From Candidatus Poribacteria bacterium (GTDB taxonomy: Bacteria > Poribacteria > WGA-4E > JAJDTR01), in contig CBDCTK010000002.1 in NCBI GenBank assembly GCA_965222225.1, forward strand, positions 5,536,001 through 5,600,000: a stretch of DNA of 64,000 nucleotides, in the 5' to 3' direction. Below the pieces are notes generated by a model. It ran no database searches and was not told the origin of the DNA. It worked only from the letters and a program-made list of their open reading frames with translations. This document shows positions 21,408 through 63,016 of this stretch, in pieces (position 1 is the stretch's first letter; each line of letters starts with the position of its first letter). A program made the position numbers and the translations under genes.

Positions 21408-21467
21408 GGGATTTACTATCGCGCTCCTTATTCACTCGCTTGATCATTATACACTTGTTTGATCCCC
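21408..21467 (-). repeat. Covarying GA-hairpin repeat, one full plus one partial copy
   Basis: GGGATTTA-CTATCGC-GC-TC-CT-TATTC-AC-TC-GC-TTGATC followed by AT-TATAC-AC-TT-GT-TTGATCCC. Confidence 0.8.
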
Positions 21468-21491
21468 AAAATCAGATGTGTTTGCCTCCGG

Positions 21492-21538
21492 TGTGGATAA
21501 GATAACTTGTTGACAATTATTTTCCCTTTTTGTATACT
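21492..21538 (+). promoter_or_regulatory. Sigma-70 promoter with an adjacent DnaA box
   Basis: TTGACA(21510)-N17-TATACT; TGTGGATAA (reverse complement of TTATCCACA) at 21492-21500. Confidence 0.65.
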
Positions 21539-21628
21539 TAATTAAAGGTCGGTGATACTTCTGGAATTTAGGTAAAAATTTAATATAAATCGAGATCATC
21601 CTGCTCTACACACTTCTGAATCGAGAAA

Positions 21629-22672
21629 ATGGCGAAAAAGAAGAATCGGTCAGCAAATATTGCGCGGAAACGGACGAAGCGGAAACAGGAACAGAAGTCT
21701 CGGCGCAAATACTTGGCAATTCAGAAACAGCGTAGACTGCATGGCGAGAAGTCTGATGAGGAGCGTCTACATGAGATGATCTTGCGAAGTCGTTTGTTGG
21801 TAGACGAACCTGAACTCCGTGCGATAACCTTTGACACGAACCTTATGAGAGAGCGTGTGTTGGAGGTGCTAGAATCGGAATCCCTGAACGTGGAGGAAGC
21901 TATTGATATCGACAGATCTGGGGATGATACACTAGACGAGATTGAAGATGAGGACGAGGTTGTCGGCGAACAGTTTCGACAGGAAATACTGCCACACTTT
22001 CTTACACCGGAGTTTCTTCACAAGATTACTCATGCACTAACCGCTTGTGAGACTCGCTTGAACCGTACAGGGCAACAAAGGAGAGCAGAAATCGCTCTCG
22101 TAGCGAGATCTATTTTTGAACTTGCCGATCCCCAAGTCCTCGTTTTCCATCCGCTCGTTCTGGGAGTTACCCTTAGAACGCTTGAATACTTGCTCAATCA
22201 ACCAGGGCAACTGTCCGAGAATGAACAGCGCGATTTTGTCCAAGAAGTGATTTCCGACATACACAATCTTGGCGCTACCGAAGAGGATACTGAACTTCAG
22301 GATGGCGAGATTGATGGAGCAGACATAGCTGATTCTGATGTCGTGGTGGATCTGGATGATAAGATAGAGAAAGAGGTATTTGTGCCCGATATATCCTCCG
22401 AAGAATTACCCGCAAGAGCACTCTACCAGAACTCCGACACATTGAGTACCCGTCAGGTTATTGAAGCGTGGGATGGTTACAGGCTGGTCAACGATACAAC
22501 TGAGCAGGTTGAGTTCGTACAGCCAGACCTTAAACGGTATATTACACTAACTTCTAGCAGGCTTTTGCTACAATGTTCCTCTATGACAGATTTAGAAGTC
22601 GCAATGACAGAAGTGGAAAAACAGTGTAAACCAGAGTTAATTTATTTGGCAAAAACTCTGGTAGAAGATTAA
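21629..22672 (+). CDS. Hypothetical protein (basic N-terminus, acidic body)
   Basis: 347-aa ORF downstream of a consensus promoter; no recognisable domain. Confidence 0.75.
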   Translation: MAKKKNRSANIARKRTKRKQEQKSRRKYLAIQKQRRLHGEKSDEERLHEMILRSRLLVDEPELRAITFDTNLMRERVLEVLESESLNVEEAIDIDRSGDDTLDEIEDEDEVVGEQFRQEILPHFLTPEFLHKITHALTACETRLNRTGQQRRAEIALVARSIFELADPQVLVFHPLVLGVTLRTLEYLLNQPGQLSENEQRDFVQEVISDIHNLGATEEDTELQDGEIDGADIADSDVVVDLDDKIEKEVFVPDISSEELPARALYQNSDTLSTRQVIEAWDGYRLVNDTTEQVEFVQPDLKRYITLTSSRLLLQCSSMTDLEVAMTEVEKQCKPELIYLAKTLVED

Positions 22673-22753
22673 AAAGCGTGGGATTCAGGTAATCGGCATG
22701 GTATACTAAGATTTTTCGCATGCGGCTTATGCAGAAACAAAGGAGGTGATTTT

Positions 22754-22861
22754 ATGGCACATAGCAAAAGTGGGCAAGTCAGACGAAGAACGCAGATTCG
22801 CCACACTCAAAAGCGGCGTTTGAAAAGGAAAAAACTGACGCTAAAGCAGAAATTGCAGTGA
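22754..22861 (+). CDS. Small basic protein, 35 aa
   Basis: Strong RBS AGGAGGTG just upstream of the ATG; MAHSKSGQVRRRTQIRHTQKRRLKRKKLTLKQKLQ. Confidence 0.65.
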   Translation: MAHSKSGQVRRRTQIRHTQKRRLKRKKLTLKQKLQ

Positions 22862-22893
22862 CCAAACTAGATTCAGGTATTCCGTGCGGCGGG

Positions 22894-23706
22894 TCAAGGA
22901 CTGGCGTTATCCTCAAGTCTGTATTTTTCGAATTGAGTAAAGGCGGACGTACCTAGACGAACGGATTTTCCTCCTAAGGATTTAACGTATCCAAGCCTCA
23001 TGAGGCTGATAATCTCGACAGAGGCGGGTAAATTAAAAATATACCGTACGCACTGGCGATCTTTTTGGCGTTCAAGCGGCGCACTTACAAGCTGGGTGCC
23101 AATGTGGAGGGCTGTCGCCGCCAACAGCAGGTTTTGAATCATCGCTCCCATGCCAATCCACATCCAGCGGGCTGCTCCCTCTCCGGGTGGACGCCTGTTG
23201 GTATTCATCAGAACCAAAATTAGTAGCGGTGACGTCCGCACCAAGTTCGAGATTTCCTTTGCGGGCATCTTTCCCGCTCCTAATTGTCCCAAGATGCCGA
23301 GGTGTTTGGCGTTCTTCAGCAGGGGACCAAGCATAGTCGGATCCTTTGACAAGATTTGAGGGAGGCTAACATGATCGGCGAGCAAGACACCATCACGGGT
23401 TTCCTCCCATTCCTCATTGGTTAACCGCATCCAGCGGTGATTGTCATCAAGGAATTTGGTATCCTTGAACTGTTCAGCGACGCATTTTTCCGTTAGATTA
23501 GCAAGTGCGATTTTCCCTTCTATTTCCCGGATTATCAATAACTCCCACGGTTGAACGTTAAACGGTGAAGGCGCCCATCGAGCCGCTTCTAGTAATCGAT
23601 CGAGATCCTCAGGCCGAATTTGCCTATCTTGAAATTGACCTCGGTGACTCCGACGTGAAGCAATAGCGTCAAAGAGATTCATTTCGGGCAGCTCCCTATC
23701 TTCCAT
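22894..23706 (-). CDS. Nitroreductase family protein
   Basis: AIASRRSHR, LLEAARWAPSPFNVQPW, GAMIQNLLLAATAL. Confidence 0.9.
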   Translation of the reverse strand: MEDRELPEMNLFDAIASRRSHRGQFQDRQIRPEDLDRLLEAARWAPSPFNVQPWELLIIREIEGKIALANLTEKCVAEQFKDTKFLDDNHRWMRLTNEEWEETRDGVLLADHVSLPQILSKDPTMLGPLLKNAKHLGILGQLGAGKMPAKEISNLVRTSPLLILVLMNTNRRPPGEGAARWMWIGMGAMIQNLLLAATALHIGTQLVSAPLERQKDRQCVRYIFNLPASVEIISLMRLGYVKSLGGKSVRLGTSAFTQFEKYRLEDNASP

Positions 23707-23939
23707 TGTTACACCTCTTTCTATCCTTGGTTAAACGTTAAGCCCTCTCAGTTCAGCGGTTTTCCGTCGGAAAACACAACTCTTGAGATCCTCTGAATCG
23801 GGAAGCCGAGATAGAACACGAGGTTTTAGTGGCGGAACATCGCGCGAGCAATCTTTGCTTTGCAAAGATAACCTCCCCTCTATAATTGATGTATGTTTCT
23901 TTGGACGACAGTGCAAAGGTGCGCCCTGCGCCCAAAGGG

Positions 23940-25550
23940 TTAGTACCAGAGCGCTGACCCCTGAGATGCCCCTAGTAGCATCCCCGAATCGGGATCCTTC
24001 ATAATCATCTTTCTACTGCCGCCGGTCCCACCTCGTGCTACCACGTGTCCCCATCGTTCCAATTCTTTAACGGTTTCATCGGCGAAACGTCCATCCAACC
24101 TTAGTATAAAAGGTTGCCCGACTTGCGACGGAGAGGCACCGGGAAAACTAATCCAGGCAGGCGTGTCTACTGCATGTGCCGGAGGCATTCCAAAGTCAAT
24201 CGCGTTAGTGATAGCTTGAAAATTCAATTGCGGCTGCATAAACCCGCCGGGAGTGTTTCCAATAAAGAACACTTCGTCGCTGCTGCAAACAATGTACGTA
24301 TTTAGGGTGTGCATTGTGCGCTTTCCGGGTTTAAGCTGATTGGGATGTCCATCATCAAACGCGAAACCTTGCGCATATCCAATCCTGTCATTCAAGACGA
24401 TTCCGGTACCATCAACCACCAGCCCGGATCCAAAATGGCTTGACAGGCTAATGATAAAAGACACGGCGTTGCCATCCTTATCAGCGACGGCAAAAGATGT
24501 CGTGTCACCATTACGATAGATGTCCCCAGCCGTGGGCACGGTACTCGCTTGGTTCGGATGAATTGCCTCCCGACGCTTCTCAGCGAACGATTTTGATAAT
24601 AGGACTCCTAGAGGGACATCCTCGAAATCCGGATCCCCGGAATACGCCAACCGATCCGCGAACGCCAATTTCTTAGCTTCAACCATGTGGTGTAGGTGAG
24701 CGGCGCTACCAAATTCCATCGCGGCAACATCATATCCCTCAAGAATATTCAGTTCTTCAAGAACAATGTGACCTTGTGAGGGTAAAGTCGTTTGGTAGAC
24801 GGTATACCCTCGATAATCTGTTTGAATCGGTTCATAAACGTCCGATGTGTGATTTTCAAAATCGTACATCGTAAACAATCCGCCATTTGCTTCGGAACAG
24901 GCGACGATCGCTTGAGCGATTTCACCTTTATAAAAGGCTTCCCGTCCTCCCTCGGCAACGAGACGGAGGCTTCTTCCCAAGTCGCGGTTCACCAATACAC
25001 CCGCGCGCTTTGAAAGCACTTCGTCCTTGCAAAAGACCTTCGCAGTATTAGGAAACTTCCTGAGTTTACCATCTGCAGCCAAAGATTTGCGGTCTCCGGC
25101 TTTCATCAACAGCCCCTCTTCCGCAAACTCAATTGCGGGCTGAAGGAGCTCCTTCAACGGCATTGTTCCGAAACGCTCAAGCACTTCTACATAAGCATCA
25201 ACTGCGCCCGGAACAGAGGCAGAATGAATGCCGTCCTCCGCCATGTGCGTCCTGCCTTGCTTTTTGTAGTAGTCTACCGAGGCAGCGTAAGGCGTCCTGC
25301 CACTTCCGTTGATTCCAGTCACTTTTTTCGATTTGCCATCGTAGACTAGAATGAACGCATCTCCACCAAGTCCGCTACGACCAAGCCCAATGACGTTTAG
25401 TGTGGCTGCAGTGGCGACTGAGGCGTCAACAGCATTGCCTCCCTCTTGTAACACTTTCAGCCCTACTAGAGAAGCCTGTGGAAATTCCGTGACAACAACG
25501 CCATTTTTGGCTACACACAGCTCGTTCTGCCAGTTGACCGCAAAGTCCAT
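23940..25550 (-). CDS. ggt: Gamma-glutamyltransferase family protein
   Basis: GGNAVDA, SGLGGD, VPGAV, catalytic DTTSF, FGSG, KPGKR, GNTPGG. Confidence 0.92.
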   Translation of the reverse strand: MDFAVNWQNELCVAKNGVVVTEFPQASLVGLKVLQEGGNAVDASVATAATLNVIGLGRSGLGGDAFILVYDGKSKKVTGINGSGRTPYAASVDYYKKQGRTHMAEDGIHSASVPGAVDAYVEVLERFGTMPLKELLQPAIEFAEEGLLMKAGDRKSLAADGKLRKFPNTAKVFCKDEVLSKRAGVLVNRDLGRSLRLVAEGGREAFYKGEIAQAIVACSEANGGLFTMYDFENHTSDVYEPIQTDYRGYTVYQTTLPSQGHIVLEELNILEGYDVAAMEFGSAAHLHHMVEAKKLAFADRLAYSGDPDFEDVPLGVLLSKSFAEKRREAIHPNQASTVPTAGDIYRNGDTTSFAVADKDGNAVSFIISLSSHFGSGLVVDGTGIVLNDRIGYAQGFAFDDGHPNQLKPGKRTMHTLNTYIVCSSDEVFFIGNTPGGFMQPQLNFQAITNAIDFGMPPAHAVDTPAWISFPGASPSQVGQPFILRLDGRFADETVKELERWGHVVARGGTGGSRKMIMKDPDSGMLLGASQGSALWY

Positions 25551-25876
25551 AATCGTCTCCTAATAAGTGGGTTGTTTGTCAATCTCGTGAATCCTCGCTC
25601 ATATTTTACCCAAAGGATACCTGAGAACAACACGTAGTACAAGTATTTATTGTATAAAGGATTAGAAAGTTCAGACTTAGCACTGAAGGAGAATGAAACA
25701 GCGTGATTCGCCGGTCCGAAGAATTTACATCTCCTTACAGGAGAATTTCACCGCGGATTTGCTTGACACCATAAAAATCCTAATAATATACTACTCATGA
25801 AATAACATAATCAAACCCAAGAGAGAATCTATAATCCTAATCCGTTATAAACCCGTGTTGCCCACTGTAGGAGATT

Positions 25877-26260
25877 GTGACATCAACACACATTTCGGTC
25901 ATTAGAAAAGGTAGAATAATGAAACAGACAGTCGTTCAACGTGGCTGCCTTCGTGGTGAGATTCGCTACCATGCAAGAGCAAAGCCCGTAACTTCGCACA
26001 TCTGCCACTGCGAGAATTGCCGCCGTGCGAGCGGTGGGCTGGCTATCGTTCTCCTACGGAGATTTGAGTTCATCAAGCGGCAACCATCACGCTATCGCTA
26101 CTGTCGAAAAGATGCGGCTTGGGCAGAACGCAGTTTCTGCGGTCAATGCGGTACGCAACTTGCCTATGACAGCGAGGACGCCGACAGTATCGACGTTACA
26201 ACTGTTACCTTGGACGAACCCGATACCTATCCGCCCGAGTCCCATGAGTGGGTGTCATAA
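25877..26260 (+). CDS. GFA (glutathione-dependent formaldehyde-activating) family protein; start probably at 25919
   Basis: GCLRGEIRY, CHCENCRR, RSFCGQCGT. The first Cys motif is degenerate. Confidence 0.8.
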   Translation: MTSTHISVIRKGRIMKQTVVQRGCLRGEIRYHARAKPVTSHICHCENCRRASGGLAIVLLRRFEFIKRQPSRYRYCRKDAAWAERSFCGQCGTQLAYDSEDADSIDVTTVTLDEPDTYPPESHEWVS

Positions 26261-26337
26261 AAGCCGTCATGGTTGGAACTATGGTCGCTAGATGATTTTG
26301 CATCAGAGTGAATTGGAGTTGAAAGGAACCCAAAAGT

Positions 26338-27189: not shown

Positions 27190-27390
27190 CCCTCCTATCG
27201 TTTCCGGCTTAGCTTTTACACTACGCGGGCGGGAAGTGTAGCGGGATTGTTGCACCAACTACTGTTGTTGATCTTGATAGCCGGGACATGCTACAATAAC
27301 GGTGTCTTGACGGGTTTCCTAAAGGGATTAGATGGAGAATACCATTACTCTAAAATGACAATGCATAACTGGCAAATGGCGTGAATTGAA

Positions 27391-28977: not shown

Positions 28978-29052
28978 GGGATCTCTATCGCGCGGGATTA
29001 GCTATCGCACTCACTATCCACTCGTTTGATCCTTATTCAGTCGCTTGATCCC
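28978..29052 (-). repeat. Covarying GA-hairpin repeat cluster (partial + full + partial)
   Basis: GGGATCTCTATCGCGC / GGGATTAGCTATCGC-AC-TC-AC-TATCC-AC-TC-GT-TTGATC / CT-TATTC-AG-TC-GC-TTGATCCC. Confidence 0.85.
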
Positions 29053-29179
29053 GACCTTCAGGGGTTGCAAAGCATGTTTCTTGTGTCGGCCCCATAGGCA
29101 TTAGACACTTAGCGAAAAAGCCATTTAAGTTGAGTGGCAGGATAATTATACCATATAATTTTAGCGAGTAAATCACTAG

Positions 29180-31799: not shown

Positions 31800-32060
31800 T
31801 AGGACTTGCGCAGCACCAAGGATTGCGTTCGGAGATTGTTTCTATAGTGGGTGCGAGGAAGTCGCGTTCGGGAGAAGGATCTCTATCGCACTCCCTATTC
31901 GGTCGTTTAATCCCCTACAGAAGACGTGCAATGAAGGGATTCCAATGGGAACTCTATCGCAGTCGCTGTTCGCTCCTTTGATCCCTAACTATAGGATTTT
32001 CTATCGCCTTCGCTATCCGCTCAGTTGATCGCCACTACGGACCGAACAACGTAAGTCCTA
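31800..32060. mobile_element. MITE-like shell containing REP remnants and three GA-hairpin repeats
   Basis: Terminal inverted repeats TAGGACTTGCG / CGTAAGTCCTA (10/11 match). A lone matching end, TGCGCAAGTCCTA, occurs at about 51385. Confidence 0.5.
31877..32030 (-). repeat. Three full copies of the covarying GA-hairpin repeat
   Basis: AC-TC-CC-TATTC-GG-TC-GT, AG-TC-GC-TGTTC-GC-TC-CT and CT-TC-GC-TATCC-GC-TC-AG, each between CTATCGC and TTRATC. Confidence 0.88.
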
Positions 32061-32115
32061 CTGTGTAAAATTCTTAGTTGAAATGACTATAACGATGCAT
32101 GTCGGTATCCCGAAT

Positions 32116-35251: not shown

Positions 35252-35289
35252 GGGGATCTCTATCGTAGTCGCTGTTCGCTTCCTAGATC
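35252..35289 (-). repeat. Covarying GA-hairpin repeat, degenerate copy
   Basis: GGGATCTCTATCGT-AG-TC-GC-TGTTC-GC-TTCCTAGATC. Confidence 0.75.
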
Positions 35290-38262: not shown

Positions 38263-38660
38263 CTTGATTGGGTTGAAATGGGTATTGTCAGGTACGAACT
38301 GTAGGCTGAATCAGTAAAACAGAAGCGTAACGGACGCAGTCATATCTTCACTGCCTAGATACGCCATGCCCTGTCTGTTGGGTTGGCACAAGTCTGTTAT
38401 TGTGTGCCCAGATAGACCTAATTGCTCTATCAATCCGAGGGCAATCGTGTGAGTTGTATATTAATACGATTTTTTTGGGTAGGGGTTACGGGGAGGCACA
38501 ATCTTTGGGAGGCAGAAAGGCGCGAAGAATGATTAACAAACGTTATTTTTATATTACGAAATAGCATTAGAGCTTGTTTGAATAATCGGTAACAGAGCCA
38601 GCTTTTTGTCATTTGAAGAGAGGTTTTTCATGTTTTTGCAGTTTCCTGCTATATACTGTC

Positions 38661-38699
38661 AGGATTTCTATCGCACTCACTATTCGTTCGCTTGATCCC
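38661..38699 (-). repeat. Covarying GA-hairpin repeat, full copy
   Basis: AGGATTTCTATCGC-AC-TC-AC-TATTC-GT-TC-GC-TTGATCCC. Confidence 0.88.
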
Positions 38700-38720
38700 A
38701 CGCTGGGGCTTTTAGAGGCT

Positions 38721-38741
38721 GGTGCGCAGTGCGCACCCTAC
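38721..38741. repeat. GTAG-type REP-like palindrome
   Basis: GGTGCGCA-G-TGCGCACC-CTAC; a related copy lies at about 53913-53933. Confidence 0.55.
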
Positions 38742-38802
38742 AAGAAATGGAGCGCGGATTCCGCCCTGATTTGATGATAGAAAAGGGATTACCGTGGGAG
38801 TT

Positions 38803-40467
38803 CTATCGAACTCGGTGTTCACTTAACCTCACTAGCGCCTCCGCCGCGAAGAGTTTCATATCACTACTTTCGTTGTTGCCGATAATATCAATTAGGATAG
38901 GCTCTGCACGCTTTACGCCCAACTCTCCCAGGGCTATTGCGGCTCTCGGTGTGTAGTCGCCGTCGCGTTGGGCGAGAATGTCCATCAAATAGGGAATGCC
39001 GCGTTCATCTCCCAACTTTGCTAACGCTTTAGCGGCATCGATTCGTACCATCTCACTCATTAACATATGCATTTCGTCCAAAGGGGTAGAATCCGCGAAG
39101 TAGTCACCGTCATTGCTAAAAGCGTTTATCAGGGCCGGGATAGCACGCATGTCTCCCATTGCGCCCAATGTTCGGGCGGCATTCGCCCTTACAGTATTAT
39201 TATAACGACCGTTGAGACAACCAATCAATACGGGGAGCGCCCGCTTATCTCCATTCTCTCCCAGCTTGACTGCGGCACGAATTCCGAGATAGGACGCGGC
39301 GAAGGAAGCGTGGGCTTCTAACATGTCATTTTCTCCCATCTGCGGCAAGATGTACAGCGGTTTTACCTCCTTCCAGGCATTCTCGAGACCGTCTATCAAG
39401 GCGTCAACGCCACGCTCAATCCCCGCTTCCGCTAACGCCGCGGTGGCACGCCTTTGCGCCGCATTACCGTCATCGTTGAGGATGTCTATCAAGACGGAGA
39501 CGCCGCGCTCTTCCCCCAATCTTGCCAATGCTAGTGCAGCACGCACTCGGTCGTACGTAAGACTGTCGTTGAGAACGTCAATCAGAGCAGGGACCGCTCT
39601 CGCATCACCTAATTCTCCCAACGCTTCTACGATCCAGCGCGATGCGCCCTCTTCATCATCACGGAGGTACTTTATCAAGAATGGAGCAGCACTCTTGGCT
39701 TTCAACTTTCCCAACACTCCTGCAACTTGCCCCCGCACGGGAACGTCACTTTCATAAAAAACTCGTATCAAAGCAGGAACTGTCGACTCGCCTGCCAACT
39801 TTTCCAGTGCGTCGGTAACACTCATCAAGAACCACAGATTACGCATCCCACCAAGTTTTACAGAGGGGGCTATCTCGCTTAAAACATCTATCAATGGAGG
39901 GACAGCTTTCTTGTCCCCCAAATTTCCCAGCGTTTCAGCAGCGACGGATCGAACATCTTGGTCATTATTTTTCAAAGCGCCTCGCACTATCTCTAATAGT
40001 AACTCGGGAGAAATTACTTCGCTCAACTTATAATATCTGTAATACTCTTTGAATGCGTCGCTGGTTCGCCCACTTGGGGCGAGCACTTTCACTAACATGG
40101 CACGCCCAACCGGTTTTTCCGGGTATTCCTGAATAAAGCTATCAATCAATTTCAGGGCTCTCTCACGTTCTCCATCTTTGAGGTACGCACTTCCTACGGT
40201 TAGCAGCCTCTCCAACATGGCATACCCAATCGATTTCGCTGGGTATTCTTGAATGTAGCCATCGATCAGATCAAAAGCTCGCTCATAATCGCCCACCTTT
40301 AGAAAAGCATCTGTTTTCTCTTCTAATTCTGATTTCCCAGAACCATAGCTTGGAAGAATCGCCTGAAGACAAATAAGTGCGACCGCCACCCCAAGGCTTA
40401 TTATCGTAGTATTCAATCGCCTCATTCTGTGTTTCTTTACTTGTTGGGTATTAGGAATCACATTCAC
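38803..40467 (-). CDS. HEAT-repeat (PBS-lyase-like) protein with N-terminal signal or TM and TPR-like helices
   Basis: Repeated VR..AA..LG.LGD..AVP.LI..L units. Confidence 0.88.
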   Translation of the reverse strand: MNVIPNTQQVKKHRMRRLNTTIISLGVAVALICLQAILPSYGSGKSELEEKTDAFLKVGDYERAFDLIDGYIQEYPAKSIGYAMLERLLTVGSAYLKDGERERALKLIDSFIQEYPEKPVGRAMLVKVLAPSGRTSDAFKEYYRYYKLSEVISPELLLEIVRGALKNNDQDVRSVAAETLGNLGDKKAVPPLIDVLSEIAPSVKLGGMRNLWFLMSVTDALEKLAGESTVPALIRVFYESDVPVRGQVAGVLGKLKAKSAAPFLIKYLRDDEEGASRWIVEALGELGDARAVPALIDVLNDSLTYDRVRAALALARLGEERGVSVLIDILNDDGNAAQRRATAALAEAGIERGVDALIDGLENAWKEVKPLYILPQMGENDMLEAHASFAASYLGIRAAVKLGENGDKRALPVLIGCLNGRYNNTVRANAARTLGAMGDMRAIPALINAFSNDGDYFADSTPLDEMHMLMSEMVRIDAAKALAKLGDERGIPYLMDILAQRDGDYTPRAAIALGELGVKRAEPILIDIIGNNESSDMKLFAAEALVRLSEHRVR

Positions 40468-46139: not shown

Positions 46140-46691
46140 TTATCGCCCCTGCTTAAGGCTTTCGAGTTCGGCTTCAATTTGTTTTTGCACGTTCTCGGAT
46201 ACAGCCGTGCTTTTTCCCGGGGGCTCAGGTTGCGTGGTTATTGAGGAACGCATTTTCGATTTGATTACAAGAAAAATGACTACACCAATCAAGACGATTA
46301 TAATGACGGGCATTATGTAGGCGACAAGGTTGAAACCGGTGGGCGGCATGAGGGCAGAGAACTGTGTGCCATATTTGGTGATGTATTCATTGCGAATCTG
46401 TTCAACACTACTGCCGGCTAGAAGACGATTGCGAAAATCAGCCTCAATCTGCCGGGCTGTTCCACACACACACTGTTGGATTGTCTCCCTTGTACATCCA
46501 CAGTAACAGTATACACTCGTCTTCAACTGTTCTAGCTGGGTGTCAATGGCTGGCTGTACGCCGCCACTTGTTTCGTTAGCAGATACGACCCAAGAACTGG
46601 CGCCGAGGGTTAATCCAAATACAAGAGCTATGCGTAGGAGTTGGAGTGAGGTCATCTTAGCTCGACTTTGTACATTTGAGTGAGATAACAA
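46140..46691 (-). CDS. ccmH: Cytochrome c biogenesis protein CcmH-like
   Basis: Signal peptide, CYCGC...C.C, G.S.EQI...Y..KYG, PP.TGFNLVAY.MP, TM. Confidence 0.75.
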   Translation of the reverse strand: MLSHSNVQSRAKMTSLQLLRIALVFGLTLGASSWVVSANETSGGVQPAIDTQLEQLKTSVYCYCGCTRETIQQCVCGTARQIEADFRNRLLAGSSVEQIRNEYITKYGTQFSALMPPTGFNLVAYIMPVIIIVLIGVVIFLVIKSKMRSSITTQPEPPGKSTAVSENVQKQIEAELESLKQGR

Positions 46692-46799
46692 ACGGTGTCA
46701 ATTGAACGTTCAAGAAAAGCGGGGAGATTTTAACCATCTGGTCTTTTTGGTTGACCATTGAAAAAGTCGGCGGCGGTTTCTGATATTGTGCAACCTGTC

Positions 46800-46994
46800 G
46801 GAATCTCTATCGCACTCACTACTTTAGGATTTACTATGGGACTTCTATCGCGGTCACTATCCGTTCCCTTGATCCTTCGTTATCCACTCAGTTGATCGTT
46901 CGTTTGATCCCGCGCTGGGGCTCTAATGTAAACAACTCGCTGGTGCTAGACACCGAAGATTTCTATCGCACTCGTTATTCACTCCCTTGATCTC
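46800..46994 (-). repeat. Largest GA-hairpin repeat cluster (two full and three partial copies)
   Basis: CTATCGC-AC-TC-AC-TA (partial); GG-TC-AC-TATCC-GT-TC-CC-TTGATC; CT-TC-GT-TATCC-AC-TC-AG-TTGATC; GT-TC-GT-TTGATCCC; AC-TC-GT-TATTC-AC-TC-CC-TTGATC. Confidence 0.88.
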
Positions 46995-47074
46995 TGCTGG
47001 AGCGGAAGGTTAAGCGCTTCAACCTTAGCGTAAAACCGATGGATTTTCAAACGAGGTCTCAATTTGTGAATCGG

Positions 47075-49096
47075 TTACGATTCAAGTTCTTTCATCTGAT
47101 GCTTTTCAGCTAGGGCAACAACCCCACCAATCATCATAACGCCGACACCAATCCAAACGAGATTGATGAGAGGATTGTGGTAAACTTGAAGAGGAACGAG
47201 TTGCCCCGACCGCACAAAGGAGGGCACGTCTTCCGGCAGCGGCCCCAAAGCAATATAGATATCGTTCAATCCGAATTGTCGGATGGCTGATTCTATCGTA
47301 TCTTGTTCGCCTTGTCCCGCTCTATCGTAGAAACCACGCGCCGGACGCATGGTAGCAATCTTCTCGCCCCCTTTTTCAACGGCGATAACAACCCCACCGC
47401 GCGAGTGATTTGAGTGCCTTTCCAGAAAAGCGTCCTCCATCGTCAGGGTGTATTGTCCGACATCCATTGACTCTCCGAGTTTCAGACTCTTTGATTCCAA
47501 CAGGAAGTAGCCTTTGGACCCCATTATTCCGATGTACAGAATAACGATTCCAATGTGGACGATATAGCCGCCGTATCGTCGCTTATTGCGTTGAATGAGG
47601 CGCGAAAGCCCGTGAAAGAGAGAGGTTTCTCCACGCTTGGCCCTTAATTTTGCGCCGCGATAGAACTCGTCAAAGATGGCTACGCAAGCGAATACACCGC
47701 CAAAGGCGCACAGTACAGAATAAACCGGTGTCGTGTGTCCTCTAAACGCAAGATAGCCCCACATTATTGCACCGCCGATCAATCCAAAGAGAATCGGTTT
47801 GGCGAACATTCGCTTGAAATTGCTCGGGGTCAATTTTTTCCATGAAATGATTGGGCCGGCACCCGTCAAGAAGAGAAGCAGTAGACCGGGAATGATAACA
47901 ACTTTATTGAAGAATGCTTCCGGTACGGCGGATTTATTTCCCGTAACTCCTTCCGTGATGATGGGCCACAGCGTCCCCCAAAGGATAATCAGCGTCAATC
48001 CTACAAACATCCAGTTGTTAAGGAGGAACGCACTTTCGCGGGAGAGAATTGATTCGAGGCGGTTTGGACTTTTTAGGTCGTTCCACCGGTAGTAAATCAA
48101 CCAGGCAACGCCAAGGCAGGAAAACGCAATAAATCCCAAGAAATAGCCACCAATATCCGACTGTGCAAACGCATGCACAGAGGAAATTACCCCGCTGCGC
48201 GTGATGAACGTCCCCAACAGGGTGAACTCAAACGCCAGCGTAATCAGGACGATATTCCAGAGTTTGAGCATATTCCGTTTTTCTTGGATCATTACGGAAT
48301 GAAGATAGGCAGTGCTCAGCAGCCATGGCATAAAGGAGGCGTTTTCGACCGGATCCCACGCCCAGTAGCCGCCCCAACCGAGTTCGCGATACGCCCAATT
48401 TCCACCTAGCGTGATGCCGACCGTGAGAACCAGCCATGAGGCTATCACCCAACGCCGTGAGCGAAAGATCCAGTTGCTGCCGGTTTCTCCAGCTGCCAAG
48501 GCTCCAACCGCGTATGCAAACGGCACCGTCAAACTAACAAAGCCGATATAAAGGGACGGGGGATGAAACGCCATGCTGGGGGTTTGCAGCAACGGGTTCA
48601 TTCCCGCGCCATCGGGGAGCGCCGCGCCGTTTGGGAAACGTGCTAGCGGATTGTACACTCCCTCAATTAGACCAGTGACGAGGATTATGAAGAAGAGTTG
48701 AACGGTTGAGATGGGGACCAGAGCGTAATCACCGAGCCGGTCTTTTGCTCGACGATTTTGCCAAGTGACCAGCGCTCCGAACAGTGTGAGAAGCCAGAGC
48801 CAGAACAGCAGGGAACCGGACATTCGTCCCCATAGCGCAGTAATCTTATACATCAAGGGTTGATCGTGGCTTGAGACCTCGGCGACGTATTTCATTGAAA
48901 AATCATCGGTCACAAAGCCGTAGATCAGCGCTCCAGTAGCCAAACTAATCAGAAGAAACGTGGCAACCACGCCGTTACGTCCGCTAATAATGGCGCCGGA
49001 ACTCCTATAGCGCAAGCCTGTACAAAGCAGGACAATTGCCCATAAACAGGAGAACACCGATAGCCATATCGCGGCGTGACCTATTTCCGCTACCAT
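47075..49096 (-). CDS. ccmF: Heme lyase CcmF
   Basis: GSLLFW, GMNPLLQ, HPP.LY.G, WAYRELGWGGYWAWDPVENASFMPWL, TRSG..SSVHAF. Confidence 0.97.
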   Translation of the reverse strand: MVAEIGHAAIWLSVFSCLWAIVLLCTGLRYRSSGAIISGRNGVVATFLLISLATGALIYGFVTDDFSMKYVAEVSSHDQPLMYKITALWGRMSGSLLFWLWLLTLFGALVTWQNRRAKDRLGDYALVPISTVQLFFIILVTGLIEGVYNPLARFPNGAALPDGAGMNPLLQTPSMAFHPPSLYIGFVSLTVPFAYAVGALAAGETGSNWIFRSRRWVIASWLVLTVGITLGGNWAYRELGWGGYWAWDPVENASFMPWLLSTAYLHSVMIQEKRNMLKLWNIVLITLAFEFTLLGTFITRSGVISSVHAFAQSDIGGYFLGFIAFSCLGVAWLIYYRWNDLKSPNRLESILSRESAFLLNNWMFVGLTLIILWGTLWPIITEGVTGNKSAVPEAFFNKVVIIPGLLLLFLTGAGPIISWKKLTPSNFKRMFAKPILFGLIGGAIMWGYLAFRGHTTPVYSVLCAFGGVFACVAIFDEFYRGAKLRAKRGETSLFHGLSRLIQRNKRRYGGYIVHIGIVILYIGIMGSKGYFLLESKSLKLGESMDVGQYTLTMEDAFLERHSNHSRGGVVIAVEKGGEKIATMRPARGFYDRAGQGEQDTIESAIRQFGLNDIYIALGPLPEDVPSFVRSGQLVPLQVYHNPLINLVWIGVGVMMIGGVVALAEKHQMKELES

Positions 49097-49550: not shown

Positions 49551-49840
49551 TTCGATACTCCTTGTGTTTGTACGAGCTCGCGCTCAAGGTTGCACTTGCC
49601 TAAATATTACCTTGATTTCATCGGGAATACAAACGAAAATCCCGTTGCGGCGATGGATTGGCTCGGGATCTTGCCCGCTGACCACGATTTCCCGTGAGTG
49701 TTCGTGAGTGTTAAGGATTAGATTCTACCACATCTTACACGAAATGGTGAGAAGTAAGAGAGGGAAATCAGTGATTTCACGATTACCAATCCGGTCAAAC
49801 AGGAGTGCAAAAGAGAGTAACCGAGTTTTCCAAGAAAAAA

Positions 49841-49877
49841 GGGATCTCTATCGCACTCCCTATTTGGTCGCTTGATC
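49841..49877 (-). repeat. Covarying GA-hairpin repeat, full copy
   Basis: GGGATCTCTATCGC-AC-TC-CC-TATTT-GG-TC-GC-TTGATC. Confidence 0.88.
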
Positions 49878-57541: not shown

Positions 57542-57898
57542 CGTTTGATTCCTGTAGTTAGGGCGATTCCGTTATGTATATTATAATAGATGATTCCGAT
57601 TGCTTTTAAGTGTAACGGTCGCACACAATGGCGTAGAAGGGGAAACGTCATTGCTTGCGAACTCAATGGGTGCATTCAATGCGCGGAACAACCCCTCAAT
57701 GATTTCACTATCAGAGTATAGTGGTGAAACCATAACGCTGTCAATCAATTTGACGTAACATCGTCGGTAATCAACCATCAATCAACGATGATGCCCAATT
57801 CGTAATAGACCACAGATCTTTCTCATGCTAGTATAGAATCAGCCATGGTAGCTGTCTACACTCGCGGAGTCGGACGCCGAACATTTCTTCCGTTGAGT

Positions 57899-57928
57899 TT
57901 GCAATAACTGCCTAAATTATGCTATAAT
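57899..57928 (+). promoter_or_regulatory. Extended -10 sigma-70 promoter of smpB
   Basis: TTGCAA-N18 and TGcTATAAT, ending 6 nt before the ATG. Confidence 0.65.
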
Positions 57929-57934
57929 CTTTGC

Positions 57935-58396
57935 ATGAAGAAAGCCTCTGCTAACGATTCCGCAAAAGTTATAACCGTCAATCGGAAAGCGCGGTACGAC
58001 TACCACTTGCATGACCGCTATGAAGCTGGAATAGCGCTGCAAGGGACAGAGGTCAAGTCGATACGCGCGGGAAGATTGAATTTAGCAGATAGTTATGCGC
58101 GCATCCGCGATGGTGAGGTTTTCCTATTTGACGCTCATATTAGCCCCTATGAACAGGGCAACAGCGAGAACCATGAGCCGAAGCGGCAGCGCAAGTTACT
58201 GCTGCATCGCCGTGAGATTAGGAAGATTGAAAGTAAGATTCGGTCGGCAGGTATGACGGTTGTGCCGACAAGAGCGTATTTCAATAACGGCAAAGTAAAA
58301 CTTGAAATCGCAATCGCATCTAGCAAACACTCTTACGATAAGCGTGATGTCATTGAAAGAGAGGAAGCGCGTCGCGCTATCCGTTCTCATCTCTAA
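57935..58396 (+). CDS. smpB: SsrA-binding protein
   Basis: NRKARYDY, EAGIALQGTEVKSIR, RKLLLHRREI, YDKR. Confidence 0.98.
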   Translation: MKKASANDSAKVITVNRKARYDYHLHDRYEAGIALQGTEVKSIRAGRLNLADSYARIRDGEVFLFDAHISPYEQGNSENHEPKRQRKLLLHRREIRKIESKIRSAGMTVVPTRAYFNNGKVKLEIAIASSKHSYDKRDVIEREEARRAIRSHL

Positions 58397-58460
58397 ATGA
58401 CAAAGTGTTCAGCCCGTGCGCCCGCATGGACAAACGTCAGTCTATCATTAAGAACAAATT

Positions 58461-58814
58461 GGGGGTGAAAAGGTTTCGACGTGAGTCAATGAGATAAGAG
58501 TTGCATGCCGAGGTTTCCGCAGGCCTCGTTAAACAGGCGGAAAAAACTTAACTGCTGATTACGAACAGTTAGCTCTAGCTGCTTAAAGCAGCTACGCTCG
58601 GCTAGCTTGCGGCCCGTCGAGTTAGTCGAGCGCCAAACAACGGGCTCGGCAGCTTGTTTGTTCTTAAGGGACAAGTTGCGAGAAAATACTTGAGATAGCC
58701 TGCACGAATCTTGCATAAGGGAGTCGTTACGGTGAAGCACCAAAACTTATGCTAAGCATGTAGTAGCTTTTATTGAACTGCTCTCGGACACGGGTTCGAT
58801 TCCCGTCACCTCCA
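58461..58814 (+). ncRNA. ssrA: tmRNA, tag peptide ADYEQLALAA*
   Basis: 5' GGGGGTG pairs with 3' CACCTCC-A; T-arm GGTTCGATTCC; tag ORF gct gat tac gaa cag tta gct cta gct gct taa at 58554-58586; follows smpB. CCA is not encoded (reads TCA). Confidence 0.95.
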
Positions 58815-58842
58815 TCAGATTTTTGGATCCAATCCCACCACG

Positions 58843-58885
58843 AGGTGCAATTGTCGATTGACACGGTTGACGATTGCACCTTTTT
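58843..58885 (+). terminator. Intrinsic terminator after ssrA
   Basis: AGGTGCAATTGTCGATTG / CGGTTGACGATTGCACCT stem (with G-U pairs) followed by a T run. Confidence 0.75.
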
Positions 58886-59020
58886 CGTAATTACTCTTCA
58901 AATCTAGTATTCGCGTATCACCTGCCTGACTAAACGACCTACCAATAAACGGCAATATTCTTGTAGCTTCCAACTCGTCTATACGACGGATTCACATCAT
59001 ATAGCAAGGAGAGACCGAAA

Positions 59021-59692
59021 GTGCAAACACTAGACAGAGCAAAACTGATAGTAAGAGCTCAAGTCAGCGATCTGCTGACAAAGTTGGAGGACGGGCAAAA
59101 AACTCGGCAACTGGTGCTGGAGGAGGTGCGCGACGATATCCGGGGGATAAAGTCACTCGTCGTCAACGCCATTGCTGGTCTTAAACTGATTGAGCGCCAA
59201 ATTGAAGAAACTGATGCCGAAGCGGAAAAATGGGATGCTAGGGCAGCAATTGCCTTGGAAAAATCCGAAGAGGATTTGGCTCGTCGTGCGCTTGCCCGTA
59301 AGAATGAGCTAACACGAAAAGTGGAACGCTATCGCGAGCAGCTTACTGCGCAACGGGCTACTATTGATACACTTAAATCAAGTCTGAAATCACTGGAATC
59401 AAAATTAGAGGAAATGCGTTTCGACGCGGCGCGAATGGATGTCCAAGAGAAGCTATCCCGACGATCTGCGCTCGGAACGACCTCTGCGAGCGATTATGTC
59501 ATTGGTGACAGCGCCTTTGACGCTTATGATCGTATGGTTGAACAGGTGCGAGACTTAGAAGCACATGTCGAGGCGTTCGATGAATTGATGCAAGGCGATA
59601 AACTGGAACAGGAGTTCCATGCATTGGAACGTAAGAATGAGGTCGATAAGGATTTAGCGGCTCTAAAGTCCAAACTCTCGGCGGGCGAGTAA
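59021..59692 (+). CDS. pspA: PspA/IM30 family protein (divergent paralogue)
   Basis: L.KLED, W...A.IAL....EDLARRALARK, AFDAYDRM.E.V..LEA, LEQEF..LE, L.ALK.KL. Confidence 0.88.
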   Translation: MQTLDRAKLIVRAQVSDLLTKLEDGQKTRQLVLEEVRDDIRGIKSLVVNAIAGLKLIERQIEETDAEAEKWDARAAIALEKSEEDLARRALARKNELTRKVERYREQLTAQRATIDTLKSSLKSLESKLEEMRFDAARMDVQEKLSRRSALGTTSASDYVIGDSAFDAYDRMVEQVRDLEAHVEAFDELMQGDKLEQEFHALERKNEVDKDLAALKSKLSAGE

Positions 59693-59755
59693 TTCACGGC
59701 TGCAGTAGGAGTACCGGGTAGAGAAATGTACTATTGACATCAAACCAGATTTTTG

Positions 59756-59784
59756 TTGAAATTCCATCCCAGTCGCGTTACAAT
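59756..59784 (+). promoter_or_regulatory. Sigma-70 promoter
   Basis: TTGAAA-N17-TACAAT upstream of 59898. Confidence 0.5.
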
Positions 59785-59897
59785 TCAACGCAGTTTCGGG
59801 TTACCAGTAAGGTAGTCGTAAAATCTTGCGCGACAACTCGTCTGATTGTAAACTCAGTCGGGTTTAATTCTATCAGGGAATTACAAGGAGAGTAACC

Positions 59898-60386
59898 ATG
59901 GTTGAAGTCGACGTAGCATTCATCTCTTTTGACCAGCATGTGGGCACGCCAATTGTCGTGCTGAAGGATAAAGCAGCCGAAGCCAAGCGGATGTTGCTCA
60001 TTTGGATCGGTTCACCGGAAGCCGCCGCCATTCAGTCAAAAATCAAGGGCGAGGAGGCTACGCGCCCGATGACACACGATTTGATGAAGAATCTAATTGA
60101 AAATCTTCAGGGGGAGATAGCTTCTGTCTGTGTCCACTCCGTGGAAGACGGAACCTATTTCGGGCAAGTTACGCTTCATGTGGATGGACAGACGATTGAT
60201 ATTGATGCCCGTCCAAGCGATGCCATCGCGCTTGCATTGCGGTTTGAAGCCCCAATCTACGTTGCCGAGGAGGTCATTGAAGAGCATGGCCTCTCCGAGG
60301 ACGATTTGAAAGAGGCGCAACAGGAGCAGACGAAGAGTGTTTTAGAAAACTTAGATGATGAGACGTTGGGCGAGTTTACAGTCTAA
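59898..60386 (+). CDS. Bifunctional nuclease family protein (DUF151)
   Basis: PIVVLK, IWIG..EA.AI, RPMTHDL, IDARPSDAIALALR..APIYV. Confidence 0.92.
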   Translation: MVEVDVAFISFDQHVGTPIVVLKDKAAEAKRMLLIWIGSPEAAAIQSKIKGEEATRPMTHDLMKNLIENLQGEIASVCVHSVEDGTYFGQVTLHVDGQTIDIDARPSDAIALALRFEAPIYVAEEVIEEHGLSEDDLKEAQQEQTKSVLENLDDETLGEFTV

Positions 60387-60413
60387 CTACCAAATCCGAG
60401 AGAGTAACCACCC

Positions 60414-61073
60414 ATGCCAATCTTTGAAAAAATCAGTCGAATTCTCAAATCAAATATCAATGATCTACTAGATCGGGTCGAGGACCCGGAAAAGATCTTG
60501 AATCAGTTGCTTGAGGATATGCGTCATGAGTTCAAAGAAGCAAAAGTGCAGGTGGTTGCGGCAATCCGCGATGGGAATCGGCTTGAAGCTCAATACAAGG
60601 AGAATCTGGAAAGCGCCGAGAATTGGGAAAAGCGAGCTATCGTGTTCATTGAGAATGGCGATGATGTACGCGCGAAAGAAGCGCTGCGCCGCAAGAAATC
60701 CTTTAGTGAATCGGCTGATAATTACCGAGATCAACTTGAATCCCAGCGGGAAAGTATTGCTGTTCTCAAGGACGGGTTGGCAACGTTGCAGGAGAAGATT
60801 GAGGAAGCAGAGCAGAAACGCGCCATTCTGATTGCCCGCGCGAAGCGAGCAGAGGCCGAAAAAAACATCCAAGAAACAGTAGCAGGCATCGCGGAATCAA
60901 GTGCAGCCGATGCCTTCGATCGGATTCAGGACCGCGTGGCTGAAACCGAAGCACACGCCGAGGCGTATCGCGAATTGCGGAATCTTGGCGCGGATGATTC
61001 TGTTTTTGAACCAAATCCGAACGACGAAATTGAGGATGAACTCGCCAAACTGAAAGCGAAGCTGAAAAAGTAG
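60414..61073 (+). CDS. pspA: PspA/IM30 family protein
   Basis: IF.KISRILKSNINDLLDRVEDPEKIL.Q...DM, W..RA, AKEAL.RK, AFDRI, DELAKLKAKL. Confidence 0.93.
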   Translation: MPIFEKISRILKSNINDLLDRVEDPEKILNQLLEDMRHEFKEAKVQVVAAIRDGNRLEAQYKENLESAENWEKRAIVFIENGDDVRAKEALRRKKSFSESADNYRDQLESQRESIAVLKDGLATLQEKIEEAEQKRAILIARAKRAEAEKNIQETVAGIAESSAADAFDRIQDRVAETEAHAEAYRELRNLGADDSVFEPNPNDEIEDELAKLKAKLKK

Positions 61074-61124
61074 ACCGCTGCCGTAGAGTCCGTTTTAATC
61101 CGGATTTGGTTTAAGGATTCGACA

Positions 61125-61298
61125 ATGCGACTATTTAGGAAATCCATCATCGTTGTGCTAATTTTAGGGCTTGCGCTTATCGCAGTAAAGTTAGTTTTGC
61201 CTATCGCCATTTGGGTATTTCAATTCGCTTTCACGGTGCTCGCCCTTATCGCAATTGGAATCGCGATTGTGTATCTCTATCACAAACTCCGCGCGTAA
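61125..61298 (+). CDS. Small two-TM membrane protein, 57 aa
   Basis: AAGGA RBS; MRLFRKSIIVVLILGLALIAVKLVLPIAIWVFQFAFTVLALIAIGIAIVYLYHKLRA. Below the ORF-track cutoff. Confidence 0.7.
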   Translation: MRLFRKSIIVVLILGLALIAVKLVLPIAIWVFQFAFTVLALIAIGIAIVYLYHKLRA

Positions 61299-61334
61299 CC
61301 TACTTCCAAGGGGATTTTTTAGCCTTAGCTACCA

Positions 61335-62792
61335 ATGAATCAGAAAAACATTGAAGCACCCGTATCAAACGACATGGCGCTTAACTATCACCTCATGCAT
61401 CCCGGCGGCGATAGTGCGCCCGGTGATCCCAACGCCGCATTCTATCTGGATGGCACGTATCACCTACACTATATCTTGAGACAGACGTGGCAGGGCGAGC
61501 GGTCGTTCTGCTTTGTCCATGTCACCAGTCCGGACATGCTACACTGGACGTGGCAGGCAACAAAGCTCCAGCCGTCTTTCACGGGTCACGGCATGTTCAG
61601 CGGCACCGGTTTCATCACAAAGGAGGGACAGCCTGCCACCATCTACCACGGTCAAGCCTCCCAGCGGAATCATATCGCTCTTGCCAATGGTAGAACCTTA
61701 TCCGCGTGGGAAAAGCCGTTTCCGGTCGAACCGAAGACAGCCGATGGAGCAGATGCGGAAATGCATCACTGGGATCCCGATTGCTTCCTCATCGGCGACA
61801 CCTACTACGCCATCTCCGGCGGCAGACACCAACCGCTCAGTAAGTCACAAGATTTGCGGAATTGGAGCTATGTCGGCGATTTCCTGAAGCACGAGTTGCC
61901 GGATTCAGCAATTGGCGAAGACATTTCTTGCCCCAATTTTTTCCGTCTCGGAGACAAGTGGGTGTTGCTGTGTATCAGCCATCCGTTCGGGTGCCGCTAC
62001 TACATTGGCGATTGGGACGTGGAGAACGAGCAGTTCGTTCCCGAAACACACGGGCGGATGAATTGGCGGCGTCCTGACCAATCCATTTACGAAACGGAAT
62101 ACCGGGACTACTTTGCGCCGGAAAGCGTGCTTACTCCAGATGGACGCCGGGTCATGTGGGCGTGGCTTGTTACCCTCAATGATGAGATTTCCCAAAGGAC
62201 AATTCAGTCTCTGCCGCGTGAACTGAGTTTGGCAGAAGATAATAGCCTGGGTATCCGCCCTCTGCGCGAACTCGAAACGCTCCGCTATGATCGAACTATT
62301 CTCAGAAATCTCGCGGTGACGCCGCCAGAACGCTCACATAGTAGCACTGCCACCGCGCGCATTGCCAATCTTGAGGGCGACGCTCTTGAGTTGAGAATTA
62401 CGATTGACAGAGAGCAGGCGGTGCGCAAGCGGTTCGGTTTCCGACTCTTTGCCAACGAAGATCACGAAGGGTTGCCAATTCTGATTCACCCGGAGACGGC
62501 GACTCTGCGCGTCGGAACGACCGAGGCTCCGTTCGCGGTAGCCGATCTTCCCGAAGGCGAAGACGTTGAGTTGCGCATCTTTATTGACAAATACCTTGTC
62601 GAGGTTTTTGCCAATCATCGGCAAGCTGTCGTGGGCGCCCACATGGATTATCACTCTGCCAACGGTCTGAACGCCTACACCTACGGCGACCCGACAACGA
62701 TTCGGCAGATCGAAATCTGGAAACTGAAGTCTACGAATCAGGGATTTTTCGAGGCGCGAGAAAATCGCATCTGGGCGCCAGACACCGAGTAA
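61335..62792 (+). CDS. Glycoside hydrolase family 32 protein
   Basis: [51 protein letters not shown]. Confidence 0.88.
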
Positions 62793-62820
62793 AATCCAAA
62801 AAGACCTACCCGTGCCAGCT

Positions 62821-62993
62821 CTGCCCAACATCGTCATTATTCTCACCGACGATCTCGGTTACGGCGACCTATCCTGCCAAGGACATCCACTCTTCGAACA
62901 CCCAATCTAGATCGGCTTGCAACGGAAGGACAGCGGTGGACGAGTTTCTACGCCTCTAGCCCACTCTGCAATTCGAGCCGATCAAACGACTGA
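62821..62993 (+). pseudogene. Truncated sulfatase N-terminal fragment
   Basis: [23 protein letters not shown], a frameshift, then [29 protein letters not shown], ending at a GA-hairpin repeat. Confidence 0.75.
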
Positions 62994-63016
62994 ATAGGGA
63001 GTGCGATAGAATTGCC
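62980..63016 (+). repeat. Covarying GA-hairpin repeat in the opposite orientation
   Basis: GATCAA-AC-GA-CT-GAATA-GG-GA-GT-GCGATAG-AATTGCC. Confidence 0.85.

Follow-up and report, generated by a model that had tools for sequence, protein, structure and literature searches.

We analysed a stretch of 64,000 nucleotides (nt) from a Candidatus Poribacteria bacterium (assembly GCA_965222225.1, contig CBDCTK010000002.1, positions 5,536,001 to 5,600,000), called the window throughout. The genome from which it comes, that of a sponge symbiont, measures 5.70 Mb in 2 contigs with 50% G+C. Scattered between the genes of the window are copies of a non-coding element of 36-38 nt, a small hairpin with four variable pairs. 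An earlier note, made from the letters of the window alone, had described about 16 full or partial copies of a dispersed hairpin with tandem GA steps and covarying stems. A scan of the window with that note's pattern, allowing <=3 mismatches, matched 11 full copies where 0.01 were expected by chance, and 0 of 100 shuffles reached 11. Ten matches start on the + strand (21416, 29002, 31883, 31954, 32001, 35260, 38668, 46845, 46963 and 49848) and one on the - strand (62980). A covariance model made from 126 copies and run on the window with filters off (cut-off E<=1) recovered the same 11 copies and zero extra.

All 11 copies lie between ORFs (open reading frames) and are flanked by long ones (Table 1); the first, for example, has ORF 20398-21246(+) on one side and ORF 21629-22672(+) on the other. 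Most of the 'partial copies' of the earlier count turned out to be the halves of host copies that had been split by another copy, and one is degenerate. The inner copy at 28994-29031 entered exactly after the GA at positions 20-21 of its host, and the stack at 46800-46911 has host halves at 46800-46844 and 46875-46911. The first third of the window (1-21000) is without any copy, and the remainder carries all 11.

Table 1. Copies of the element in the window, with the strand and the basis of each call
Feature	Position	Strand	Basis
Full copy, nested in host copy halves 21394-21407 and 21446-21467	21408..21445	-	pattern and covariance model
Host copy 28978-28993 and 29032-29052, split by full inner copy 28994-29031	28978..29052	-	pattern, covariance model and nesting analysis
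Three direct-orientation full copies (31875-31912, 31946-31983, 31993-32030) in one 370-nt spacer	31875..32030	-	pattern and covariance model
Diverged full copy, 3 scaffold mismatches	35252..35289	-	pattern and covariance model (E 2.3e-5)
Full copy adjoining GCCCC-type hairpin REP remnant and GTAG-tagged REP (38698-38744); REP, repetitive extragenic palindrome	38660..38697	-	pattern and covariance model
Degenerate or partial copy (tail and eroded hairpin)	38785..38830	-	read from sequence; no covariance-model match at E<=1
Multiply nested stack 46800-46911 (full copy 46837-46874) and second full copy 46955-46992	46800..46992	-	pattern and covariance model
Full copy	49840..49877	-	pattern and covariance model
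Full copy, opposite orientation (purine strand on +)	62980..63017	+	pattern and covariance model

Copy number and covariation of the hairpin

Across the whole genome the same pattern returned 588 exact matches and 1020 matches with <=2 mismatches, at a density of 5 to 69 copies per 200-kb bin (6 in the short last bin). Chromosomal copies are mostly intergenic (918 of 1017), in a chromosome of which ORFs cover 79%. Read on the purine strand, the column profile of the genome-wide copies is GATCAA-VB-GA-VY-GRATA-RB-GA-VB-GCGATAG, followed by a 7-8-nt tail, (N)ARATCCC. About 20 scaffold positions, unpaired flanks included, are 90-99% fixed, a degree of conservation that is partly imposed by the search pattern itself. 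The profile has no conserved GT[AG]G/CGTC at the foot of the hairpin, where GATCAA stands 5' and GCGATAG 3' instead, and GTAG is present only in a minor tail variant, TCTTGTAG.

The variable positions covary. In the 11 full window copies the 44 stem pairs divide into 35 Watson-Crick, 7 G-T and 2 other pairs, essentially as in the earlier hand count of 36, 6 and 2. Genome-wide, the 4080 stem pairs of the 1020 copies comprise 3431 Watson-Crick, 445 G-T, 69 A-C and 135 other pairs, compared with 1549, 829, 513 and 1189 after shuffling. Mutual information for the four stem pairs was 0.78, 0.98, 1.18 and 0.42 bits, with at most 0.22 bits for unpaired variable columns and a shuffle maximum of 0.018. 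Because the pairs covary strongly and independently, and 241 distinct stem combinations occur in the genome, the stems are combinatorial and do not represent a few subfamilies. The pattern also holds across genomes. We aligned 126 distinct copies, taken from loci of 14 genomes as well as the window. Of 504 cells, 93.5% were paired against 62.6 +/- 1.6% in shuffled alignments, and none of 500 shuffles reached the observed value; all four stem pairs change on both sides (180 cells), and the covariation score was 0.974 against 0.348 shuffled, with every slid control at or below 0.21. The motif is constrained in shape, not in sequence, which bears out the selection for shape that the earlier note had proposed. 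The outer helix GGGATC/GATCCC that it had also drawn fared differently: 62% of its cells pair, and there is no covariation beyond the self-complementary GATC.

The element had been presented as belonging to no recognised family. An Rfam scan of the window at gathering thresholds left it unmatched, and a scan of the three-copy region 31800-32100 gave 0 matches at E<=10. The sole match in the window was a transfer-messenger RNA (tmRNA) gene at 58461-58817 (+) (RF00023, 207 bits), for which ARAGORN gives the tag peptide ADYEQLALAA. Nor is the element a repeat of the CRISPR (clustered regularly interspaced short palindromic repeats) type, again as claimed: its copies are dispersed, their stems differ, and the sole cas1-linked array in the genome has another repeat, of 37 nt.

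Folding strand, insertion junctions and turnover

G-T pairs outnumber A-C pairs in the stems by 6.4 to 1 (445 vs 69), as would be seen if only the purine strand folds. The ratio is equal in both replication orientations, 308:47 with the purine strand on the locally C-rich strand and 137:22 with it on the G-rich strand, so that a replication-linked mutation bias is no explanation and folding is assigned to the purine strand. This agrees with the strand specificity suggested at the outset. The bases around the GA steps are restricted as well. In the two arms, the base 5' of GA is A in 4 and 9 of 1017 copies and the base 3' of GA is T in 6 and 9; the context G-GA-C occurs in 2 of 1017, and a Y-R pair closes the loop in about 99%. 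These exclusions agree with the sequence-context preferences of sheared tandem G-A pairs and of mini-loops closed by G-A. The position-specific exclusions therefore appear compatible with the putative tandem G-A/A-G step of the earlier description. Strong stacking of GA-AG steps has been described in DNA (PMC8163305).

Such a strand-specific hairpin could be a structured RNA motif, carried in mRNAs or expressed as small RNAs, in which the tandem-GA hairpin binds a protein, stabilises a transcript or terminates it. Wobbles of the G-U type tolerated on one strand only would suit this explanation, as would the nearest-neighbour energies: with RNA parameters the purine strand has a mean of -2.39 kcal/mol and the pyrimidine strand -0.88, the purine strand folding better in 884 of 1020 copies, while with DNA parameters the means are -0.64 and -0.36 kcal/mol. 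Contigs from RNA libraries also cover the region, though they show neither strand nor level. Against it, copies between co-directional genes have the pyrimidine strand as sense in 290 cases and the purine strand in 324, so that about half would be transcribed as the strand that does not fold. Among chromosomal copies, orientation has no relation to local gene orientation and instead tracks local GC skew (~69%; 311:173 at positive skew, 143:390 at negative). The absence of an orientation bias relative to flanking genes disfavours an RNA function, as do the lack of any Rfam match even at the relaxed cut-off, the gain and loss of copies between sister species, and precise nested insertions that destroy host copies; we consider an RNA motif very improbable. 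Where the earlier note had left the choice between RNA and single-stranded DNA, the DNA alternative is the one favoured.

We characterised nesting by removing 32-41 nt at each of the 1020 copies and checking the joined flanks for a rebuilt host copy. A host was rebuilt at <=1 mismatch in 141 copies and at <=2 mismatches in 211. The commonest net insertion is 36 nt, other classes of 34-38 nt forming a minority, and there is no target duplication. Insertions fall after the host GA at positions 20-21 (25 copies), after the loop G13-A14 (20), after G1-A2 (16) and inside the host GC at 24-25 (~53, with 71 exact junctions of head plus GATCAA); none of the nesting classes listed falls after the 5'-arm GA at 9-10. 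The inserted piece is TCAA...ATCCC in the GA classes and ATCAA...ATCC in the GC class. Expressed as a 38-nt module, GATCAA...ATCCC, the element thus always has 2 nt in common with its target, either GA on the left or G on the left and C on the right. Host halves still pair across the insert in the nesting examples listed, indicating that the hosts were intact when the insert arrived and that these are no chimeras. Nested copies mostly share the strand of their host (137 same-strand vs 18 opposite-strand), and the 12 opposite-strand cases listed of the 18 all lie at or beside the host GC at 24-25. Neighbouring copies within 1 kb are likewise in the same orientation in 292 pairs and inverted in 97. 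Single units make up 491 of 702 clusters, so the inverted doublet arrangement known as a REPIN is not the mobile unit. At one locus (L010, G000:C2:1578264-1578672) units form a head-to-tail stack with a period of 38 nt, in which the tail TCTTGTAG replaces ARATCCC and GTAG thus immediately precedes the GATCAA of the next unit.

Other hairpins also serve as hosts. A GTAG-tagged REP is split in its loop by the element (66 empty and 13 filled copies), a GCCCC-loop-GGGGC REP is split in its 3' arm (25 empty, 35 filled), and CRISPR repeats are invaded, on either strand, in the 3' arm of the repeat hairpin. A recurrent two-hairpin composite, in which the GTAG-tagged REP (GTAGGGTGCGCACTGCGCACC) is followed by AGCCTCTAAAAGCCCCAGCGGGGC...TAG, is a preferred landing site of the element and is found at 38698-38744 of the window and at many sites across the genome. 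The cas1-linked CRISPR array (L011, G000:C2:2705500-2708000; cas1 at C2:2703012-2703836) has a period of 72-76 nt and the 37-nt repeat GTAGCAACCATTGCC[CG]CGATGAAAAG[CG]GGACTGAAAG. It is heavily invaded by the element, and this invasion accounts for a 19-copy alternating cluster. Its repeats also hold 3-4 instances of a composite of about 200 nt (L011:1633-1864, 1870-2104 and 2771-2936), each built of two inverted element copies around a conserved core of ~130 nt and bounded by the 12-nt direct repeat CCCGAYGAAAAG. This composite could be a unit resembling a MITE (miniature inverted-repeat transposable element) whose ends are copies of the element, or it could reflect two separate insertions, each strand-specific. 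The earlier note had envisaged a source locus with an array of variants beside a reverse transcriptase, PrimPol or REP-associated tyrosine transposase (RAYT) gene; the arrays examined, the L010 stack and the invaded L011, provided none.

Spread without any dedicated enzyme, by template switching or microhomology-driven copy choice at stalled forks, with arm-to-arm correction keeping the stems paired, deserves consideration here. It would account for the 2 nt that module and target always have in common and for the choice of other hairpins as targets, and it would suit the failure to find a cognate gene among the candidates examined (see below). It does not readily explain inserted pieces of such uniform length and ends, nor a scaffold held nearly fixed even in its unpaired flanks, inflated as that figure is by the search pattern, nor the confinement of the element to two genera when hairpin repeats are common throughout the phylum. 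We regard spread of this kind as improbable.

Copy content has changed between related genomes. The spacer of 384 nt at 46691-47075 corresponds to an orthologous spacer of 14-25 nt that is copy-free in 6 sister genomes, and the 370-nt three-copy spacer corresponds to one of 86-121 nt, copy-free in 3 sister species; conversely, some spacers that are empty in the source genome carry copies in sister species. We counted copies at <=1 mismatch in 176 genomes of the phylum Poribacteria. All 10 genomes of the source genus carry 594-1279 copies each, and all 4 genomes of one genus of another family carry 195-218 each. Sparse copies occur in 7 further genomes (19 in one, 1-4 in six), and the remaining 155 have 0. 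Viral contigs gave 0 matches to the element, and the 80 matches listed from an all-species genome scan were all in records of Candidatus Poribacteria.

Independent sequencing data confirm that the copies are real. Twenty public runs from 10 studies contain the region, many of them with about 80% of its 31-mers, and word depth rises 10-50-fold at copy-bearing bins (4 runs, 4 studies). Assembly contigs of these runs end at copies; two of them, from independent runs, cross the diverged copy at 35260. The depth rise and the contigs across this copy show that the copies are not an assembly artefact; contigs from the public runs break at repeats and carry no information on polymorphism, transcript strand or transcript ends.

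One further explanation makes the element a double-stranded site that serves the host, bound by a nucleoid protein, gyrase, a methylase or a partition protein and kept for chromosome function. Intergenic placement and an orientation linked to GC skew recall some chromosome-architecture motifs, and the element does contain GATC. For a duplex site, however, covarying inverted positions with an asymmetry between G-T and A-C pairs would make no sense. Its copy content also differs between sister species at orthologous spacers, its copies insert into and disrupt one another and CRISPR repeats, and it was not found in most of the searched phylum. A host-serving duplex site is accordingly hard to credit.

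A proposed mobile module and the search for its enzyme

Hairpin covariation, strand asymmetry, intergenic location, precise nesting, presence or absence between species and lineage restriction are all observed. Taken together, they make it probable that we are dealing with a very small mobile DNA module, non-autonomous and dependent on its hairpin, that is moved by a trans-acting enzyme. The element would then rank with the smallest mobile DNAs observed. A single-stranded DNA intermediate, and the kind of enzyme, we infer from these features. In the mechanism that we propose, the module on the purine strand would be GA-TCAA-NN-GA-NN-GRATA-NN-GA-NN-GCGATAG-(N)ARATCCC, and each insertion would add a net 36 nt. 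The feature recognised would be the purine-strand hairpin with its four free Watson-Crick or G-T pairs, its tandem G-A/A-G step and its pentaloop bounded by G...A. A trans-acting enzyme would probably read this shape together with the fixed flanks and then excise or copy the module, which would be joined without target duplication 3' of GA or inside GC, in the loop or 3' arm of another hairpin. Copies that lose the fold would stop multiplying, which could leave a standing population with combinatorial, compensated stems.

Several observations weigh against a mobile module of this kind. Nearest-neighbour models call the hairpin marginal (means of -0.64 kcal/mol as DNA and -2.39 as RNA). No exact pair of empty and filled sites was found in unique DNA, the spacers of sister species being too diverged for base-level junctions. 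The folding strand is mostly on the C-rich strand (701 of 1017 copies), whereas IS608-type elements use the lagging-strand template, which by the usual skew convention is the other strand; the GC skew of the genome is patchy and its origin of replication was not located, which limits this comparison of strand with replication. Perhaps excision or deletion more often removes copies that expose their folding strand on the lagging-strand template, so that the survivors would lie the other way. The remaining difficulties concern the enzyme: no cognate enzyme could be tied to the element among the candidates examined, no class of Y1 transposase is common to all element-bearing genomes, and the two Y1 genes that element copies flank, described next, were not upheld as its source.

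Among candidate mobilisers a Y1 HUH transposase of the IS200/RAYT superfamily comes first, though tentatively, and none of those examined could be tied to the element. The genome has 5 hits to Y1_Tnp (PF01797), three of them intact proteins (P0001, described next, and others of 257 and 171 amino acids). Two of the 5 have element copies as inverted flanks; as background, 97 of 4312 ORFs are bracketed by copies no more than 300 nt away on either side, in an inverted arrangement for 15 of them. The first of the flanked genes encodes a 157-amino-acid (aa) Y1 protein (P0001) with the motifs DHIH, WQ and YIKNQEAHH that scores above the NCBIfam IS200 cut-off. It is related to the ISDra2 and IS608 structures, and a Protein Atlas look-up gave only confirmed IS200-like clusters. 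It agrees with subclass 1.2 of Quentin et al. 2018, whose Y1 genes are tabulated there without an associated REP (PMC6006769). Sister genomes have a copy within ~500 bp at 11 of 14 corresponding loci. In genera that are free of the element, however, the P0001 gene family is flanked by a different inverted repeat, AGCCCC-loop-GGGGC-GACATGT..TATAG (5 of 6 loci). The same AGCCCC-loop-GGGGC repeat flanks P0001 in the source genome, with the element inside it. The element thus sits in the P0001 family's own REP, and its position beside the gene is secondary, following from its target preference. This points to a dedicated REP for the subclass-1.2 Y1 genes of this order, in what looks like a REPtron arrangement (loci L026-L030 and L007:1690-2290).

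The second flanked gene (P0002) is a 73-aa fragment resembling a RAYT of subclass 2.4. It has six full-length relatives in sister genomes (193-225 aa, one with an internal stop), and 0 of the 6 has a copy within 1.5 kb. In the second genus, a class-2.2-like RAYT has flanking copies in a single genome; the source genome has no counterpart of it.

A two-gene module combining a 340-aa protein without a Pfam match and a 315-aa tyrosine recombinase (Phage_integrase) occurs in the source genome in five diverged copies with 76-90% protein identity, one of which has a stop codon (G000:C2: 458898-461202, 1313884-1316178, 3334486-3336533, 3989320-3991387 and 4161168-4163606). Its distribution across the order is patchy. 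Element copies surround 4 of the 5 instances, 18 of 19 in one orientation, an arrangement partly inherited by duplication. As a mobiliser this module fits loosely by phylogeny: two element-rich genomes have no match to this query and one element-free genome has one.

Relation to known mobile repeats

The closest described systems are the REP/REPIN-RAYT system and the SDRs (small dispersed repeats) of the Nostocaceae. REPs share with the element a length of 20-40 nt, an intergenic location, hairpins with compensated stems and hundreds to thousands of copies, as well as clustering, lineage restriction and turnover between related species (PMC3733652, PMC6006769, PMC3116915). The element differs in lacking the GT[AG]G/CGTC foot tag, in having four standard pairs around a tandem G-A step, in occurring as single or direct units and not as inverted doublets, with the single unit being what inserts, and in having no RAYT gene that it consistently flanks. 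The assertion that it is no plain REP is therefore right in detail, given the missing tag and the mostly single units; the element still groups with REP-like and SDR-like mobile hairpins. Among the papers listed in our literature searches, none describes the element or links Poribacteria with REP, REPIN, RAYT, MITE or dispersed repeats; those listed for Poribacteria and palindromes appear to treat other topics, several of them CRISPR or defence.

SDR4-6 (Elhai et al. 2008, Genome Res 18:1484) resemble the element, by their descriptions and not by sequence comparison, in being very small mobile modules nested in other repeats. SDR units are 21-27 nt long, compared with 36-38 nt for the element. 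SDR5 is described as inserting precisely between nucleotides 3 and 4 of GCGATCGC (PMC4390886). This resembles the GA^ and G^C insertions of our element, many of which lie in a GCGA context. The element differs in its host, a member of the Poribacteria whose genome has no Photo_RC gene and no HIP1 excess. A cyanobacterial origin was rejected on the missing Photo_RC (photosynthetic reaction centre) gene, and a link to HIP1 likewise, GCGATCGC occurring 117 times in the source genome where 85 are expected. Among HIP1-rich cyanobacteria, SDR-like repeats are reported to have been found in none outside the Nostocaceae (PMC5861425).

Two other systems recognise folded single strands. In integron attC sites, too, the shape of a single-strand hairpin with unpaired or mismatched bases defines the substrate, and recognition is strand-specific. 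These sites are 57-141 nt long, have R''/R' boxes and form cassette arrays beside intI, and the element has neither such boxes nor such arrays. Elements of the IS200/IS605 family (IS608, ISDra2) share with ours hairpin recognition, joining on the 3' side of a short invariant sequence with no duplication of the target, strand specificity and an orientation tied to the direction of replication (PMC6006769). Our element differs in having one hairpin and not two subterminal ones, no tnpA or other coding capacity, and a target of only 2 nt plus structural context. It differs from IS608 in particular in that its folding strand is mostly the C-rich one, opposite to expectation under the usual skew convention.

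A bolder reading, which we think possible though doubtful, is that the 36-nt unit represents a new class of mobile DNA: a single-hairpin module recognised by its sheared-G-A shape alone, moved by something other than a RAYT, and homing to the loops and 3' arms of DNA hairpins, those of CRISPR repeats included. The mover might then be an orphan IS200-like Y1 enzyme of subclass 1.2, a tyrosine recombinase that works on folded single strands, or the host replication machinery. If this reading is true, the element would parasitise other repeats and might inactivate CRISPR arrays.

The movement of REP-like and SDR-like micro-repeats is still largely unsolved. With their fixed scaffold and freely covarying stems, the roughly one thousand copies in each genome amount to a natural mutational scan of what the recogniser needs, and hundreds of nestings supply a junction rule (net 36 nt, 2 shared nt, loops and 3' arms only, mostly on the same strand). 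Together, the scan and the rule make the mechanism testable. The element also enlarges the spacers between genes, at one locus to 384 nt from 14-25 nt, and breaks CRISPR repeats, and short-read assemblies of uncultured sponge symbionts fragment at every copy.

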